A DNA stretch of 64,000 nucleotides from assembly GCA_049617635.1 (NCBI GenBank), contig JBMZJQ010000002.1:8558-72557 (forward strand), given 5' to 3'. Position 1 is the stretch's first letter. Each line of letters begins with the position of its first letter. This document shows positions 2,921 through 64,000 of the stretch, piece after piece. Source of the stretch: Poseidonia sp. Lineage in GTDB: Archaea > Thermoplasmatota > Poseidoniia > Poseidoniales > Poseidoniaceae. Both the position numbers and the translations under genes were made by a program. The notes beneath the pieces were generated by a model. It was not told where the DNA came from. It was given only the letters and a program-made list of their open reading frames with translations, and did no database searches.

Positions 2921-3580
2921 ATGACCAACATGCCATGTGGATTGTCCGGTGATGTCGTCACCGACAACGCAAGTGATTTGGCAGCAGAATACAACATCGT
3001 CGAGATTTTCCACTCCGTTCAAGGTGAAGGTCATCGAAGTGGAATTCCACACGTGTTTATTCGTTTTGGAAAATGCAACCTTCGCTGTGAATGGTGTGAT
3101 ACCAATTTTGACGAATACACGACCATGTCCGCGCTTGACATTCTGGCTCGCGTGATGGAGTTTCCTTGCAGCAACATCATCTTCACCGGGGGTGAGCCCA
3201 TGTTGAACGACTTGTGGCCGCTGAGTCGTCTGCTTCGACGTCGAGGATATCACCTCTCAATTGAATCAAACGGCACCGTTGAAATTCCGGAGGGTTTACT
3301 CGATTGGATTTGCATTTCTCCAAAAGATCAGATGTATCCAAACGTGGCCGTCCGGCAACGCATTGGAAACGAACTCAAATGTGTGTATGTTGGTCAACCA
3401 CTCAGTCTCTACGATGGCCTCATCGAGGGATTTGACCACCTGTATCTCCAGCCGTGCTACGATGAAACACATTCGGTAGAGGAAAACGGACGCATGTTTG
3501 CACTCACTGAATCCGTGGTGAAGGCCAATCCGACGTGGAGGCTCTCGCTTCAAACACACAAATGGATGGGGATATTGTGA
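2921..3580 (+). CDS. queE: 7-carboxy-7-deazaguanine synthase (radical SAM)
   Basis: QueE-type Cys motif CNLRCEWCDT, FHSVQGEG and the GGEP motif. Confidence 0.9.
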   Translation: MTNMPCGLSGDVVTDNASDLAAEYNIVEIFHSVQGEGHRSGIPHVFIRFGKCNLRCEWCDTNFDEYTTMSALDILARVMEFPCSNIIFTGGEPMLNDLWPLSRLLRRRGYHLSIESNGTVEIPEGLLDWICISPKDQMYPNVAVRQRIGNELKCVYVGQPLSLYDGLIEGFDHLYLQPCYDETHSVEENGRMFALTESVVKANPTWRLSLQTHKWMGIL

Positions 3581-4740
3581 CGAGTAAACAGCGAGCCGTC
3601 ATGGCCTTGAGCGGAGGCATGGACTCGAGTTCCTTGTTGTTGCACCTCTTGAGAGAAGGTTACGAAGTAACGGCACTTTCGTTCAATTATGGACAGAAGC
3701 ATGTCGTTGAGTTGCAACGCGCCAGCGATTTGGTCAAGCACTTGGAAGAACACGGATTGCTTGTTCATCACCATGTGATTGACCTCCAAAGTGCGATGGG
3801 ACTTTTTGCAAGCGATTTGCTCGCAACTGGTGGACCCGTCCCTGAAGGCCACTATGAGGAAGACAACATGAAAGCAACCGTCGTTCCCAATCGTAACGCT
3901 ATCTTTTCTTCGTTGTTGTACGGCACTGCTCTTTCAATTGCAACAACGAACGACAGCAAGGTCTGCGTGGTGTTGGGGGTACACAGTGGGGACCACGCCA
4001 TTTACCCGGACTGTCGACCTGAGTTTTATTCAGCCCTCGAACATGCCTTCGCATTAGGGAATTGGGACAGCCATCTCATCTCGTTCGTCTTGCCCTATTT
4101 GGAAATGGACAAAACTTCCATCCTCAAAGACGCTGAGCAGTCCGTGGATCATCTCAAATTGGATTTTGATGCAGTGTTTTCTCGAACCCTCACCTCCTAC
4201 AGTCCGGATGGAGATGGCAAAAGCCACGGGCGAACCGGTTCTGATGTGGAGCGCATTCTTGCTTTCCATGCTCTTGGGCGACAAGACCCCATTGAATATG
4301 TTGAGCCTTGGGTCACCGTCTTGGAGCATGCTTTGAAGGTCGAGCGAGAGCACAAGGATGCAACCTACCGAGAGAAACTCACAGAACTACAATACCACGT
4401 GACACGAGAACAGGGTACGGAACGGGCGTTCACTGGAATCTACTGGGATGAAGAACGCCCTGGAACCTACACGTGCATTTGTTGCTCAACCTTGTTGTTC
4501 ACCTCGAGCATGAAATTTGAATCCGGTTGCGGGTGGCCTTCGTTCCATTCCGAACACAGTGAAGCGAATATCAAACGAATTGAGGACCGAAGTCACGGTA
4601 TGGTTCGTACCGAGGTTCGCTGCGATCGGTGTGACGCTCACCTCGGGCACGTGTTTAACGACGGTCCCGCGGCATACGGAGGCGAGCGCTACTGCATCAA
4701 CTCAGCATCCATGAACTTTCATCTGGAGGAAGACCAATGA
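3535..4740 (+). CDS. queC: 7-cyano-7-deazaguanine synthase QueC fused to a C-terminal methionine-R-sulfoxide reductase (MsrB) domain
   Basis: N-terminal PP-loop ALSGGMDSS, FNYGQKH and HSGDHAIYPDCR match QueC. The C-terminal approximately 130 aa has MsrB motifs: CxxC...CxxC zinc ribbon, GCGWPSF and catalytic RYCINSA. The true start may be the internal ATG at 3562. Confidence 0.85.
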   Translation: MEALASNTQMDGDIVTSKQRAVMALSGGMDSSSLLLHLLREGYEVTALSFNYGQKHVVELQRASDLVKHLEEHGLLVHHHVIDLQSAMGLFASDLLATGGPVPEGHYEEDNMKATVVPNRNAIFSSLLYGTALSIATTNDSKVCVVLGVHSGDHAIYPDCRPEFYSALEHAFALGNWDSHLISFVLPYLEMDKTSILKDAEQSVDHLKLDFDAVFSRTLTSYSPDGDGKSHGRTGSDVERILAFHALGRQDPIEYVEPWVTVLEHALKVEREHKDATYREKLTELQYHVTREQGTERAFTGIYWDEERPGTYTCICCSTLLFTSSMKFESGCGWPSFHSEHSEANIKRIEDRSHGMVRTEVRCDRCDAHLGHVFNDGPAAYGGERYCINSASMNFHLEEDQ

Positions 4741-60987: not shown

Positions 60988-62121
60988 TCATTCCTCTTCC
61001 ACCGTCAACGTGGTTTGCTTGGAAGGGGGAACTTCGAGTTGACCCAAGCGAAAGCCGATCAAGCGCACGTGCTTGTTGGTATCGATGTTGGTAGCGAACA
61101 AATGCTGGGCAACTCGCCTGAACACAGAGGGGTCATCCATCGCCACAGGAATGCTCCTGCTGGCCGTATGGGTCTCAAATCCAGTGTAGCGGATTTTGAC
61201 TTCGGCCAGCCTTCCAGAAACGCCCAATGACGATGCGCGTTCCATCACGGTGTCCACCAAATCCACCAGGCGCTCAAGCACCAATTCGTGGTCGCTGCGA
61301 TCACGGTCAAAGGTGTGTTCCTTCCCGATTGATTTCCGGCTTCGCAACGCGCTGATGACATCGCTGCTTTCGCCTTCAACCACCGACATGAACCATCCTG
61401 CAAAACGGGCACCGGCGAGCCTCGCAAGGGAAAGTTCTCCCAAAGCCTGCAGTTCATCAGCCGTCGTGTACCCCCATTCTGCCAACTGCGTCGCTCGTTT
61501 GGGACCAATGCCGGGAATTTCGCGAAGTGAACGGCCCTCGAAAAACGGTTTGAGTTCATCGGGCATCACCCGAAACACCCCATTTGGTTTGTTGACTTCA
61601 CTGCTCATTTTGGCAACGATGCGGGTCGGGCCGATGCCAAACGAAGCTGTCAGGTTTAGCGATTCAAAAATTTCCTGCTGGAGGGTTTTCGCAAGCGCAA
61701 GGGCCCCGTCCCAGTCACCGTTGACGGCCTCGGTCACATCGAGGTACGCCTCATCGATACTCGCTTGTTCGAACAAGTTGGCTTTTCGACGCAAACACTT
61801 CATCACACGGCGGCTTGCACGGCTGTACAATCCCCGAGTCCCGCGAATGTAGATGGCCGGACCAAAAGGCGCAGCAGGGCATCGCCTCCATGCCTCGGAA
61901 ATGGGCATTGCCGAACGGATACCGTAGGTTCTAGCCTCATAGTTGCAGGTGGAAACGATACCCCTGCCTCGTCCCTGCTTTGGGTCCGAGCCAATGATCA
62001 ACGGAACGCTGTTGTCAAACCCGTGATGGAGCACTTCAACGGCGGCGAAAAACGCGTCGAGATCGCAATGGATGATGATGCGTGAAGCGTTCACGCCAAC
62101 CTCTGCTTCTCCGCCCACCAC
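60988..62121 (-). CDS. dinB: Y-family DNA polymerase IV (DinB/Dpo4-like)
   Basis: IIHCDLDAFFAAVE and SIDEAYLDVT are present; the catalytic D, D and E residues are intact. Little-finger domain at the C-terminus. Confidence 0.85.
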   Translation of the reverse strand: MVGGEAEVGVNASRIIIHCDLDAFFAAVEVLHHGFDNSVPLIIGSDPKQGRGRGIVSTCNYEARTYGIRSAMPISEAWRRCPAAPFGPAIYIRGTRGLYSRASRRVMKCLRRKANLFEQASIDEAYLDVTEAVNGDWDGALALAKTLQQEIFESLNLTASFGIGPTRIVAKMSSEVNKPNGVFRVMPDELKPFFEGRSLREIPGIGPKRATQLAEWGYTTADELQALGELSLARLAGARFAGWFMSVVEGESSDVISALRSRKSIGKEHTFDRDRSDHELVLERLVDLVDTVMERASSLGVSGRLAEVKIRYTGFETHTASRSIPVAMDDPSVFRRVAQHLFATNIDTNKHVRLIGFRLGQLEVPPSKQTTLTVEEE

Positions 62122-62219
62122 GGAGGTTTTTCACCGTCAAGGGTGCTTGAACTTGATGCTGAATTCACTTCAAGCAAGGGGTCTGGAGAACGATAGAAGA
62201 CCTCCCAGAGCGACCGTCC

Positions 62220-63005
62220 ATGATTGAAATGCATCGACACCTGGAACCAGCCGCTCTGCACCCTGTGCTCACGCCACCTCGAAACGGCATCGATGTAGGA
62301 CTGGTTCAGCCACAACGTGGCCAATTGTACCATCTTGCCGGACCTGGTCGTGCTGGAAGCAGCATGCGCCCTGTAGCCGAGCACTGGATTGCCCGTGCCT
62401 TGGCCGAGGGCGAGGTGGTGCACTGGGTCGACGGAGCATGCAGAATCGACCCTTCTCGCTTGATTCCCGCACTCGATGCACTTGACGCTGATACGGAAGC
62501 CTGTCTTTCACGCCTTTACTTGAGTCGTGGATTTACCCTGCATCAACTCGACCGGCAGTTGGAGCGACTCCCCAAAGAATTGGCCATCACGCGCTCACCT
62601 TTGGTGGTTGTCGATGGACTGTTGGCCATGCATGAAGACGACGCTGTTCGGCGTCTTGAATCACGGGTGTTGCTCCGCCGTCACATCGGCCTTTTGCAAC
62701 ACATCACTGCCCGACTGCACCTCGCCGTCATCGTCATCACGGAACGCCATGCAACATCCTCGCATCAACAGCGACTGATACGCCACGTCCATCGAGCATC
62801 ACACAACCATTTGTACGGGCACTGGCAAGGGCCACGCCGACGACGCAACCTCCACCTTTTTCACCCAAGAAGCGGGTTGCAAGGGATTTTTGCACCTCGG
62901 TTGGACGCAGCACAGGCGCGTTTTGCCATCCCCACGCCCCTCCTCAACAACCGGAAGAGCGCTCAATTGATTGGTTCGTTGCCGCTTCATCATGAGGAGA
63001 CGTGA
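62220..63005 (+). CDS. RadB/RecA-like protein with inactivated P-loop
   Basis: Aligns along its length with archaeal RadB: LVVVDGLLAMH matches the Walker B / hhhhD region, and LHLAVIVITERH matches the RadB beta-strand region. The Walker A is GPGRAGSS: no Lys and no Thr. Confidence 0.6.
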   Translation: MIEMHRHLEPAALHPVLTPPRNGIDVGLVQPQRGQLYHLAGPGRAGSSMRPVAEHWIARALAEGEVVHWVDGACRIDPSRLIPALDALDADTEACLSRLYLSRGFTLHQLDRQLERLPKELAITRSPLVVVDGLLAMHEDDAVRRLESRVLLRRHIGLLQHITARLHLAVIVITERHATSSHQQRLIRHVHRASHNHLYGHWQGPRRRRNLHLFHPRSGLQGIFAPRLDAAQARFAIPTPLLNNRKSAQLIGSLPLHHEET

Positions 63006-64000
63006 ACTCCTCCAGGGTGGGTTGCCGCCCACCCATTCGTATCTGTTCAGTGGTCCAACCAAACGGTGCAAGGATGGCCCAAATGGCCCGCTCGGCAAGC
63101 GCACCGTAATGCGATGCACACCCCCTCATCGACGGAGGAGACGATGCAAGTTCTTCGTTCAGAAGAACACGGTTGAGAGGTTCAACCGCTGTGCTGTTGA
63201 CGACAACATAGCGTATTTTCCCACCGGGTGGCACATGATGACCTTGCTCATGGGCCCGCATCAAGGCCCCATAGGTCAAGTTCTTCACGCGATAGTCACG
63301 AAGGGTTGAGGTCACGCGGCGAGTCACGATCAAATCCTCAAGGGGCACTGTTCGCTGTTCAAGACGTTGCAGTTCGGCTTTGTAGAGGCGCCAGACCCGG
63401 CGTTGTGCATCGCTTCCTGGAAGACCGTTGTGGTCCGTCCCCGAGGCGAGCACCTCAAGCGCGCGTTCTTGCAACGAAGCGACCCACGGGGGAGTTGAAT
63501 GCTGACGCATCTCAATACCGCGAACTTTGAATGTCCCGCCCCCGTAGGCCCAATATTTTGTCAACGAACCTGCGCCATGGATGCGACTTGGCAGAAAACC
63601 GATGAAATCGTAATGCTGTTCCAATTCGAGAGGAATGCCGACCAGCCGAGAAATCCGCTCAGCGAACGAGCGTGCATCGCGTTGCTGTTCTGCGGGTGAA
63701 CGGTGCAGACGATCAGCAAGCCAAACGCAGTCAACAATGGCATGCAAGACGTCCCACCCGTCGTTTTGCGCTTCCTCGATGGTCGTCAGCAAGATGTCAC
63801 GGGACCACGCACAAATCGCTTCATGGGCTTCGATGCGACCGAACCTTGCATTGCGATAGCCGGTGTAACCGAAACACGTGACAAGAAGCCATTTGAGCGC
63901 GTTTTGACGGAGGTCAAAGGCGTCTCCCTTGACGACACGTTGTTCCTTCAGCATCCGACGACGTTCAATGATTGGCGCCACAACCCGTCCGAGGAAACCG
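62944..64000 (-). CDS. Family-B DNA polymerase paralogue, C-terminal part (gene continues beyond the window), with mutated motifs B and C
   Basis: Collinear with the PolB palm and thumb. KWLLVTCFGYTGY corresponds to Kx3NSxYG (N and S lost), and VLHAIVDCVWL corresponds to YADTDG (first Asp lost). Downstream thumb similarity: LRDYRVKN and IRYVVV. No stop before the window edge. Confidence 0.7.
   Translation of the reverse strand, partial: GFLGRVVAPIIERRRMLKEQRVVKGDAFDLRQNALKWLLVTCFGYTGYRNARFGRIEAHEAICAWSRDILLTTIEEAQNDGWDVLHAIVDCVWLADRLHRSPAEQQRDARSFAERISRLVGIPLELEQHYDFIGFLPSRIHGAGSLTKYWAYGGGTFKVRGIEMRQHSTPPWVASLQERALEVLASGTDHNGLPGSDAQRRVWRLYKAELQRLEQRTVPLEDLIVTRRVTSTLRDYRVKNLTYGALMRAHEQGHHVPPGGKIRYVVVNSTAVEPLNRVLLNEELASSPPSMRGCASHYGALAERAIWAILAPFGWTTEQIRMGGRQPTLEEFTSPHDEAATNQSIERSSGC

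Follow-up and report, generated by a model that had tools for sequence, protein, structure and literature searches.

The right-hand end (positions 60,988-64,000) of a 64,000-nt stretch of a Poseidonia genome, called the window below when its full length is meant, very probably carries the PolB2 mutasome module known from archaea, in its Poseidoniales (Marine Group II, MGII) version, with a standard dinB gene beside it. This module combines the B-family DNA polymerase PolB2 with the inactivated RadA paralogue iRadA and the small helical protein PPB2. The module is already known, also in this lineage; the new points are modest, and concern the DinB or photolyase genes that adjoin it in particular clades, an iRadA gene that is uniformly convergent and overlapping, and a shared ACTTTC-type box upstream of iRadA and PPB2. 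Since polB2 runs off the window, we extended the locus with a contig (L001) from an exact-protein look-up, in which the RadA-like open reading frame was used to retrieve contigs encoding the identical protein; L001 is 99.8% identical to the window over positions 62000-64000. The genes concerned are:

60988..62121, minus strand: dinB, a Y-family DNA polymerase IV homologue of 377 residues (Pfam IMS, IMS_C and HHH_5).
62220..63005, plus strand: iRadA, an inactivated RadA/Rad51-core paralogue of 261 residues without the N-terminal HhH domain (Pfam Rad51).
62944..64000, minus strand, continuing beyond the window: polB2, a PolB2/Dpo2-family B polymerase, present as the C-terminal 351 codons of an 827-residue gene, with the HxxxD PolC signature and the peptide QPTLEEF, which resembles a PCNA-interacting protein (PIP) box.
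62944..63005, no strand assigned: the 3' antisense overlap of iRadA and polB2 (62 nt), encoding the poorly conserved C-terminal tails of both.
L001 13201..13470, minus strand, about 1.4 kb past the window end: PPB2, 89 residues, PF26485/DUF8156 by precomputed label, overlapping the polB2 start by 8 nt and forming a PPB2-polB2 operon with it.

Proteins were searched against the Pfam and NCBIfam profiles, and folds were assessed from AlphaFold2 models, all of single chains, compared with the PDB by Foldseek. Relatives were collected by a genome scan with the PolB2 alignment, taking one genome per species; it returned 174 relatives, of which the best 80 were kept, all of them Poseidoniales. Synteny counts use the 69 Poseidoniales loci whose sequence continues for 2.5 kb or more downstream of polB2. 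For the comparison across archaea we relied on the published Table S1 of PMC11791011, because our own scan kept Poseidoniales only. The homologues that carry source names come from Poseidonia, Poseidoniales or Thermoplasmatota, which puts the organism in the Poseidoniales, and a tRNA-splicing endonuclease encoded elsewhere in the window is in keeping with an archaeal origin.

The complete polB2 gene (827 residues) was read on L001. Its fragment inside the window, which contains LKWLLVTCFGYTGY and LHAIVDCVW, matches Pfam DNA_pol_B (2.5e-10) and the NCBIfam PRK05761 subfamily (2.2e-66). A preliminary description of this DNA, made from the letters alone, had seen in it a catalytically dead polymerase, on account of two altered palm motifs. 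The alterations are real: both strings occur, and alignment to Thermococcus PolB places VTCFG at NSxYG and HAIVDC at YADTDG. The same alignment shows that the motif A Asp (LDFASLFPS), the motif B Lys and, in motif C, the second, metal-binding Asp are kept. Exo II is lost (YGGDQRLFPWL where Thermococcus PolB has YNGDNFDFAYL), and Exo I, read from the sequence and not aligned, is LAIDFTP without Glu. Against S. islandicus Dpo2, taken from the published supplement, the full protein gives a BLASTP E-value of 3e-30, with the following correspondences:

PolB2 ADRGG, aligned with Dpo2 ADKGG.
PolB2 LDFASLFPS, aligned with Dpo2 VDFSSMYPS.
PolB2 motif B KWLLVTCFGY (KWLLVTCFGYTGY), aligned with Dpo2 KWILVASFGY (KWILVASFGYLGY).
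PolB2 VLHAIVD, aligned with Dpo2 VLHSIID (HSIIDS).

Across 13 homologues of 50-100% identity D396, K514, D568 and H564 are invariant, as is the stretch DGVLVPWKKNRPEDTK that precedes ADRGG, the D(K/R) motif, which in the published model is itself preceded by the iRadA-binding loop (PMC11791011). The PolB2/Dpo2 group has the HxxxD arrangement as its signature (Feng et al. 2022, PMC8764526), and judging from these alignments VTCFGY and HAIVDC belong to that family signature, which is common to the active S. islandicus Dpo2. The Dpo2 enzymes of S. islandicus and S. solfataricus, which also lack the first Asp, incorporate nucleotides on a par with the replicase Dpo1; Dpo2 has no exonuclease activity and extends mismatches and lesions, acting as an extender in translesion synthesis (PMC8764526). 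Since the supposedly inactivating positions match those of an active enzyme, while D396, K514 and D568 are invariant, calling this PolB inactivated is unsupported, and the case shows that such calls made from motif loss can mislead.

The arrangement first proposed for this locus, in which PolB2 and iRadA would be dead scaffolds, as in a permuted ImuA/ImuB pair, for DinB as the only active polymerase, is extremely unlikely. The change from NS to VT in motif B, the loss of the first Asp of DTD, the degenerate exonuclease motifs, the missing Walker A Lys of iRadA and the intact DinB all fit it. Yet the same substitutions stand in an S. islandicus Dpo2 as active as Dpo1 in incorporation, neither the two Asp metal ligands of PolB2 nor its Lys in motif B ever varies, DinB is missing from 19 of the 69 loci with the other genes, and PolB2 is the component needed for damage-induced mutagenesis in Sulfolobus. 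Nor does the bacterial analogy hold. The ImuA-ImuB-DnaE2 (ImuC) system likewise has translesion polymerase genes next to one for a RecA-like protein whose ATPase site is degenerate, but there ImuB is a dead Y-family protein and synthesis is left to DnaE2, a C-family enzyme. In our locus the Y-family polymerase is intact, and so not ImuB-like, and no C-family polymerase was found in the locus or its 20-kb extension.

A mainly non-catalytic role of PolB2, iRadA and PPB2, in processing stalled forks or regulating replication, was the original proposal for the 'inactivated' PolB2 (Makarova et al. 2014, PMC4104785), and the recombinase ancestry of iRadA and the RmuC and NUDIX genes of the same gene block would suit it. 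We think it very unlikely all the same, in view of the active-site residues of PolB2 that stay invariant over 50-100% identity and of the activity and genetics established experimentally for Dpo2 (PMC8764526).

The second protein was first described as a RecA/RadB-fold product whose Walker A reads GPGRAGSS, without Lys. That reading holds: the string occupies residues 41-48, and the protein matches both the Rad51 profile and the fold. The profile hits are to Pfam Rad51 (9.1e-6, over residues 62-177 only) and NCBIfam RadB (7.5e-4), and the structural model (mean pLDDT, the predicted local distance difference test, 81; most of the core above 90) finds its best PDB matches in the ATPase cores of RAD51, RadA and Dmc1 (E about 1e-11), with the N-terminal domain absent. 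Profile searches confirmed the Y-family, RadA/Rad51 and B-family identities of the three proteins in the window. Homologues of iRadA fall into 64 clusters, and every cluster with a source name is from Poseidoniales/Thermoplasmatota. At the position of the Walker A Lys the family has K, S, R, A or G, which indicates that the Lys is not under constraint. We therefore have the features expected of the mutasome iRadA: a RadA/Rad51 ATPase-core fold, no N-terminal domain, and ATPase residues that are not conserved. Residues 229-261 are modelled as disordered (pLDDT below 50). Within this tail the clade of the window keeps a short hGxLxLHH motif (e.g. VGSLPLHHEE; window 62940-63005), encoded antisense to the PolB2 tail.

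The third partner lies just outside the window. In the preliminary description DinB filled this place; the conserved third partner is PPB2, and DinB is lacking from a good part of the loci (see below). In the lineage of the window PPB2 begins with MGRSVPPWR; of 76 loci, 75 have the pattern MGR[ST]VPxWR, in which R3 and R9 never vary, and the model shows an N-terminal arm followed by three helices. These are the properties of the mutasome subunit, a helical protein of about 90 residues with an MGRT-type arm and Arg3/Arg9. The identification is based on the precomputed PF26485 label, the N-terminal motif and the gene context.

The association of PolB2 with inactivated RadA paralogues and an arCOG07300 protein of about 90 residues was recognized, and a damage-related complex proposed, by Makarova, Krupovic and Koonin in 2014 (PMC4104785). 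Timinskas, Timinskas and Venclovas (2025, PMC11791011) renamed the partners iRadA and PPB2, surveyed 1823 operons and modelled a PolB2:iRadA:PPB2(3) heteropentameric mutasome, defining the MGRT arm with Arg3/Arg9, the D(K/R) motif and a contact resembling RadA oligomerisation. In that survey Poseidoniales operons make up much of group 3b (PPB2-PolB2-iRadA), and an MG-II complex (EHR76801/EHR76800/EHR76802) was modelled with a pLDDT of 87 and a ranking score of 0.866; its PolB2 and iRadA (EHR76801 and EHR76800) are encoded in one of our loci (L064), which has DinB adjacent. The statement that the partners and function of the inactivated PolB were unresolved was thus outdated by the papers of 2014 (PMC4104785), 2022 (PMC8764526) and 2025 (PMC11791011). 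As for the mutasome-like module proposed in the preliminary description, its core stands, namely a polymerase for translesion or mutagenic synthesis accompanied by an inactive paralogue of a recombinase; the roles given to the proteins, the missing partner and the novelty do not. Our locus shares with the published module the three protein families, the order PPB2-PolB2-iRadA (as in Sulfolobus, group 3a, and the Poseidoniales of group 3b), the HxxxD PolC signature, the replaced exonuclease motifs, at the level of sequence the D(K/R)GG after an invariant stretch (a candidate iRadA-binding site), the MGR[ST] arm of PPB2 with R3/R9, and an iRadA without N-terminal domain or conserved Walker A Lys. 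It differs in that iRadA lies on the opposite strand with its 3' end overlapping polB2, that the neighbours seen include no orc1/cdc6, SRAP or DUF72 gene, that DinB, or a class II photolyase in other clades, is next door, and that the PIP-like motif sits on PolB2 and not on iRadA.

Several observations weigh against assigning the locus to this module. Local scans of PPB2 with Pfam (E <= 0.01) and NCBIfam matched no family, although the PF26485 model may be absent from the local Pfam-A copy. BLASTP of iRadA against S. islandicus iRadA detected no similarity, so that orthology rests on fold, context and the literature, where the iRadA groups had already been described as no longer mutually alignable (Makarova et al. 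2014, PMC4104785). Motif A of PolB2 carries Phe for Tyr (SLFPS), and the strand of iRadA, opposite to polB2, is unlike that of most described operons. The complex itself, according to a review of 2026 (PMC13324097), still awaits experimental verification, even in Sulfolobus, and the Poseidoniales proteins are at present known from their genes.

The triad of polB2, iRadA and PPB2 was also compared by gene neighbourhood. The iRadA gene lies opposite and converges on polB2 in 69/69 loci, and the 3' ends overlap in 65 of the 75 measurable loci, most commonly by 62 nt; the overlap of about 60 nt first noticed in the window is of exactly this length (62944..63005). Speculatively, such an overlap may couple the two transcripts or make them interfere. 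On L001 the genes beyond PPB2 encode a 2-hydroxyacid dehydrogenase, a 384-residue protein, a metallo-beta-lactamase-fold protein (MBL), RmuC, a NUDIX protein and alanyl-tRNA synthetase; to the left of dinB are valyl-tRNA synthetase (ValRS), an MMPL transporter and an EVE-domain protein. The three mutasome genes stay adjacent across at least five genomic contexts. DinB adjoins iRadA in 50 of the 69 loci, and all 50 share a collinear block of 11 genes, NUDIX-(RmuC)-MBL-unknown-2Hacid-PPB2-PolB2-iRadA-DinB-ValRS-MMPL. The other 19 loci have the triad without DinB in at least four other contexts, in which no gene of the block is present. Because the triad moves without DinB, and DinB is found only within the collinear block, the triad is the conserved unit. 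DinB is a partial companion, whose conservation as a neighbour is no better than that of ValRS. In 10 of the 19 loci without DinB the gene immediately upstream of PPB2, and on its strand, encodes a class II cyclobutane pyrimidine dimer (CPD) photolyase:

L055:3528-5501, plus strand: class II CPD photolyase, 657 residues (TIGR00591 9.7e-74; Pfam DNA_photolyase).

That genes for ultraviolet (UV) damage, DinB and photolyase, recur beside the triad is a hint, though not a decisive one. Three members of the block deserve a remark of their own. The 384-residue protein (L001:14620-15774, plus strand) is 62-89% identical across the syntenic block and matched no Pfam or NCBIfam family. RmuC (L001:16566-18553, plus strand; 2.3e-83) and the NUDIX hydrolase lie in the same block a few kilobases from the PolB2 module, and part of the clade has no RmuC in the block.

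DinB itself is a regular polymerase IV. Its catalytic D, D and E residues, noted from the start, are confirmed by alignment of IIHCDLDAFF and SIDEAYLDV with the corresponding motifs of E. coli Pol IV (4irc; E 3.6e-46). Pfam finds IMS (3.8e-38) and IMS_C (1.5e-20), and against NCBIfam the protein scores 267.8 bits with the DNA polymerase IV model NF002677 (cutoff 256) and 45 bits with the UmuC model (cutoff 431). It therefore has the catalytic core with both Asp and the Glu kept, as well as the little-finger domain, of a Pol IV. At the C-terminus its orthologues have a conserved RQTTLFEEE ending, which in the window reads KQTTLTVEEE (60988-61020). PolB2 orthologues have a conserved Qx[ST]LxxF near the C-terminus (QPTLEEF in the window, 62944-63030), likely a PIP box by prediction. 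Both peptides may be candidates for PCNA binding, and the DinB ending looks more like the bacterial QxxLF clamp motif.

Could DinB be an integral fourth partner, a Y-family inserter joined to the PolB2 extender in one co-regulated and perhaps physically coupled unit driven from the region between dinB and iRadA? The divergent DinB-iRadA pair is retained in 50 species-level loci, and in the clade of the window the two intergenic elements described below form a near-palindrome (TTGAACT...AGTTCAA). Switching between Dpo4 and Dpo2 of Sulfolobus aids the bypass of abasic sites in vitro (PMC8721586); a class II photolyase takes the neighbouring position in other clades, which suggests a damage-gene neighbourhood, and both DinB and PolB2 end in Q-x-T-L peptides. 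On the other side, all 50 loci are collinear over the whole block, including ValRS, MMPL and 2-Hacid_dh, so that DinB is conserved no more than housekeeping genes, and the triad occurs without DinB in the other contexts. In Table S1 of PMC11791011 the IMS domain (PF00817) is found in 46 of 95 group 3b neighbourhoods, together with 2-Hacid_dh_C (45), tRNA-synt_1 (42) and Lactamase_B (32); outside this group IMS occurs in 10 of 1728 PolB2 neighbourhoods and so is absent from about 99% of them. This adjacency is tabulated in the supplement but undiscussed in the text of that paper. In Sulfolobus, moreover, dpo2 is the sole damage-induced polymerase gene and is required for targeted mutagenesis, and dpo4 is neither damage-induced nor needed for it (PMC8764526). 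Taken with the promoter evidence given next, this makes a fourth partner rather unlikely. DinB is a neighbour of the PolB2 module and not a core subunit, most likely an independent inserter polymerase that possibly cooperates with the module and owes its position to clade-specific synteny.

The divergent spacer between dinB and iRadA, described from the start as a shared control region of 98 nt, has this length (62122..62219) and holds two separate conserved elements, of which the second has a counterpart at PPB2:

62142..62158, no strand assigned: DinB-proximal element GGTGCTTGAACTTGATG (GGTGYTTSAASTTGATG), ending 20 nt upstream of the DinB start codon.
62164..62184, plus strand: iRadA promoter box TTCACTTCAA-N4-GGGGTCT, 38 nt upstream of the iRadA ATG.
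L001 13511-13530, minus strand: PPB2 upstream box of the same architecture, 41 nt before the PPB2 ATG.

Of 52 DinB-positive loci, 47 have the DinB-proximal element next to the start of DinB, and only 1 of 24 DinB-negative loci has it at any position. It thus travels with DinB and is probably DinB's own promoter or regulatory element. Its distance to the RI[IV]HxDxD motif is fixed at 65 nt in 8 of the 11 loci where it could be measured. We also considered that it might be DinB coding sequence, a reading rejected on account of an in-frame stop and the fixed distance to the start. The second element follows the consensus TTCAsTTyCA-N4-7-GGGTCT (tandem box string TTCACTTTCACTTTCA). The composite pattern, searched in 1.3 Mb of loci, has 39 hits in front of iRadA, 30 in front of PPB2 and 4 at other places; the 64-kb window contains it once. 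Boxes of the TTCAyTTTCACTTTCA type are present at both the iRadA and PPB2 promoters in all clades, the DinB-negative ones included, and keep a fixed distance to the genes; this is the ancestral box form. A loose tandem ANTTTC lies upstream of PPB2 in 71 of 76 loci, with remaining matches at the shuffled expectation. The tandem box is not the generic promoter, since the nearby photolyase promoter has a classical TATATA box. The 98-nt region can then be read as two back-to-back promoters, one element tracking DinB and the other iRadA and PPB2, and not as one operator. Co-regulation is probable for iRadA and PPB2-polB2, but for DinB with the triad it is unproven. Further copies of the intergenic motifs in the 64-kb window did not exceed chance, so that no wider regulon is visible there, and a scan for sigma-70 promoters and intrinsic terminators, whose models are inapplicable to archaea, gave chance-level matches only.

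In the literature that we examined the tandem ACTTTC box appears to be unreported for MGII. A damage-response element of Sulfolobus, 5'-ANTTTC-3', is bound by Orc1-2 in S. islandicus, where the induction of dpo2 depends on Orc1-2. The ACTTTC of our box fits this element, a resemblance and not a demonstrated homology; no Orc1/Cdc6 was found in Pfam scans of 31 window proteins and five right-hand L001 neighbours, or among the precomputed Pfam labels of L001. That the box is the counterpart of the Sulfolobales Orc1-2 element, and that the PolB2 module with DinB or photolyase forms a mutagenic bypass unit induced by sunlight or UV, is an idea suggested by the motifs that we put forward with considerable doubt. 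If it were true, Thermoproteota and Thermoplasmatota would share a conserved cis-regulatory code for DNA damage, and the most abundant archaea of the surface ocean would possess a bypass unit. The shared box offers in any case a testable handle on damage-responsive regulation outside the Sulfolobales.

By analogy with the published orthologues, PolB2 and iRadA would assemble with a PPB2 trimer into a heteropentamer. This would be loaded on PCNA, and in our locus the probable contact is the Qx[ST]LxxF motif at the C-terminal end of PolB2. The complex would then extend primer ends after another polymerase, possibly DinB, has inserted a nucleotide opposite the lesion, and the expected outcome is damage tolerance at the cost of mutations. 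Such a scheme has parallels in other domains. Like E. coli Pol V (UmuD'2C-RecA-ATP), it places an error-prone polymerase on a sliding clamp together with small accessory subunits and a member of the recombinase family; in Pol V, however, the catalytic UmuC is a Y-family enzyme acting with an active RecA, whereas here a B-family polymerase is paired with a dedicated inactive RadA paralogue, DinB scores as Pol IV and not as UmuC, and no UmuD-like gene (S24 peptidase) occurs among the called neighbours on L001. It also recalls eukaryotic two-polymerase bypass, with a Y-family inserter and an exonuclease-deficient B-family extender (Pol zeta), to which Feng et al. explicitly liken Dpo2 (PMC8764526); the eukaryotic system differs by its Rev1- and Rev7-type scaffolds, which are missing here, and cooperation of DinB with PolB2 in Poseidoniales is only inferred. 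Marine Group II archaea are uncultured and live in sunlit surface water, and for them a PolB2 mutasome flanked by DinB or CPD photolyase is a probable route to the tolerance of UV lesions and to mutation.

Two minor observations were made on the way. The contig NZEQ01000045.1 (L037), from a metagenome-assembled genome labelled 'Verrucomicrobiales bacterium', carries a Poseidoniales PolB2-iRadA-DinB-ValRS-MMPL block with 70% PolB2 identity, and is probably a mis-binned archaeal contig. Elsewhere in the window (3535-4740, plus strand) a protein of 401 residues fuses QueC (7-cyano-7-deazaguanine synthase) with SelR/MsrB (methionine sulfoxide reductase B), an unusual pairing of domains.

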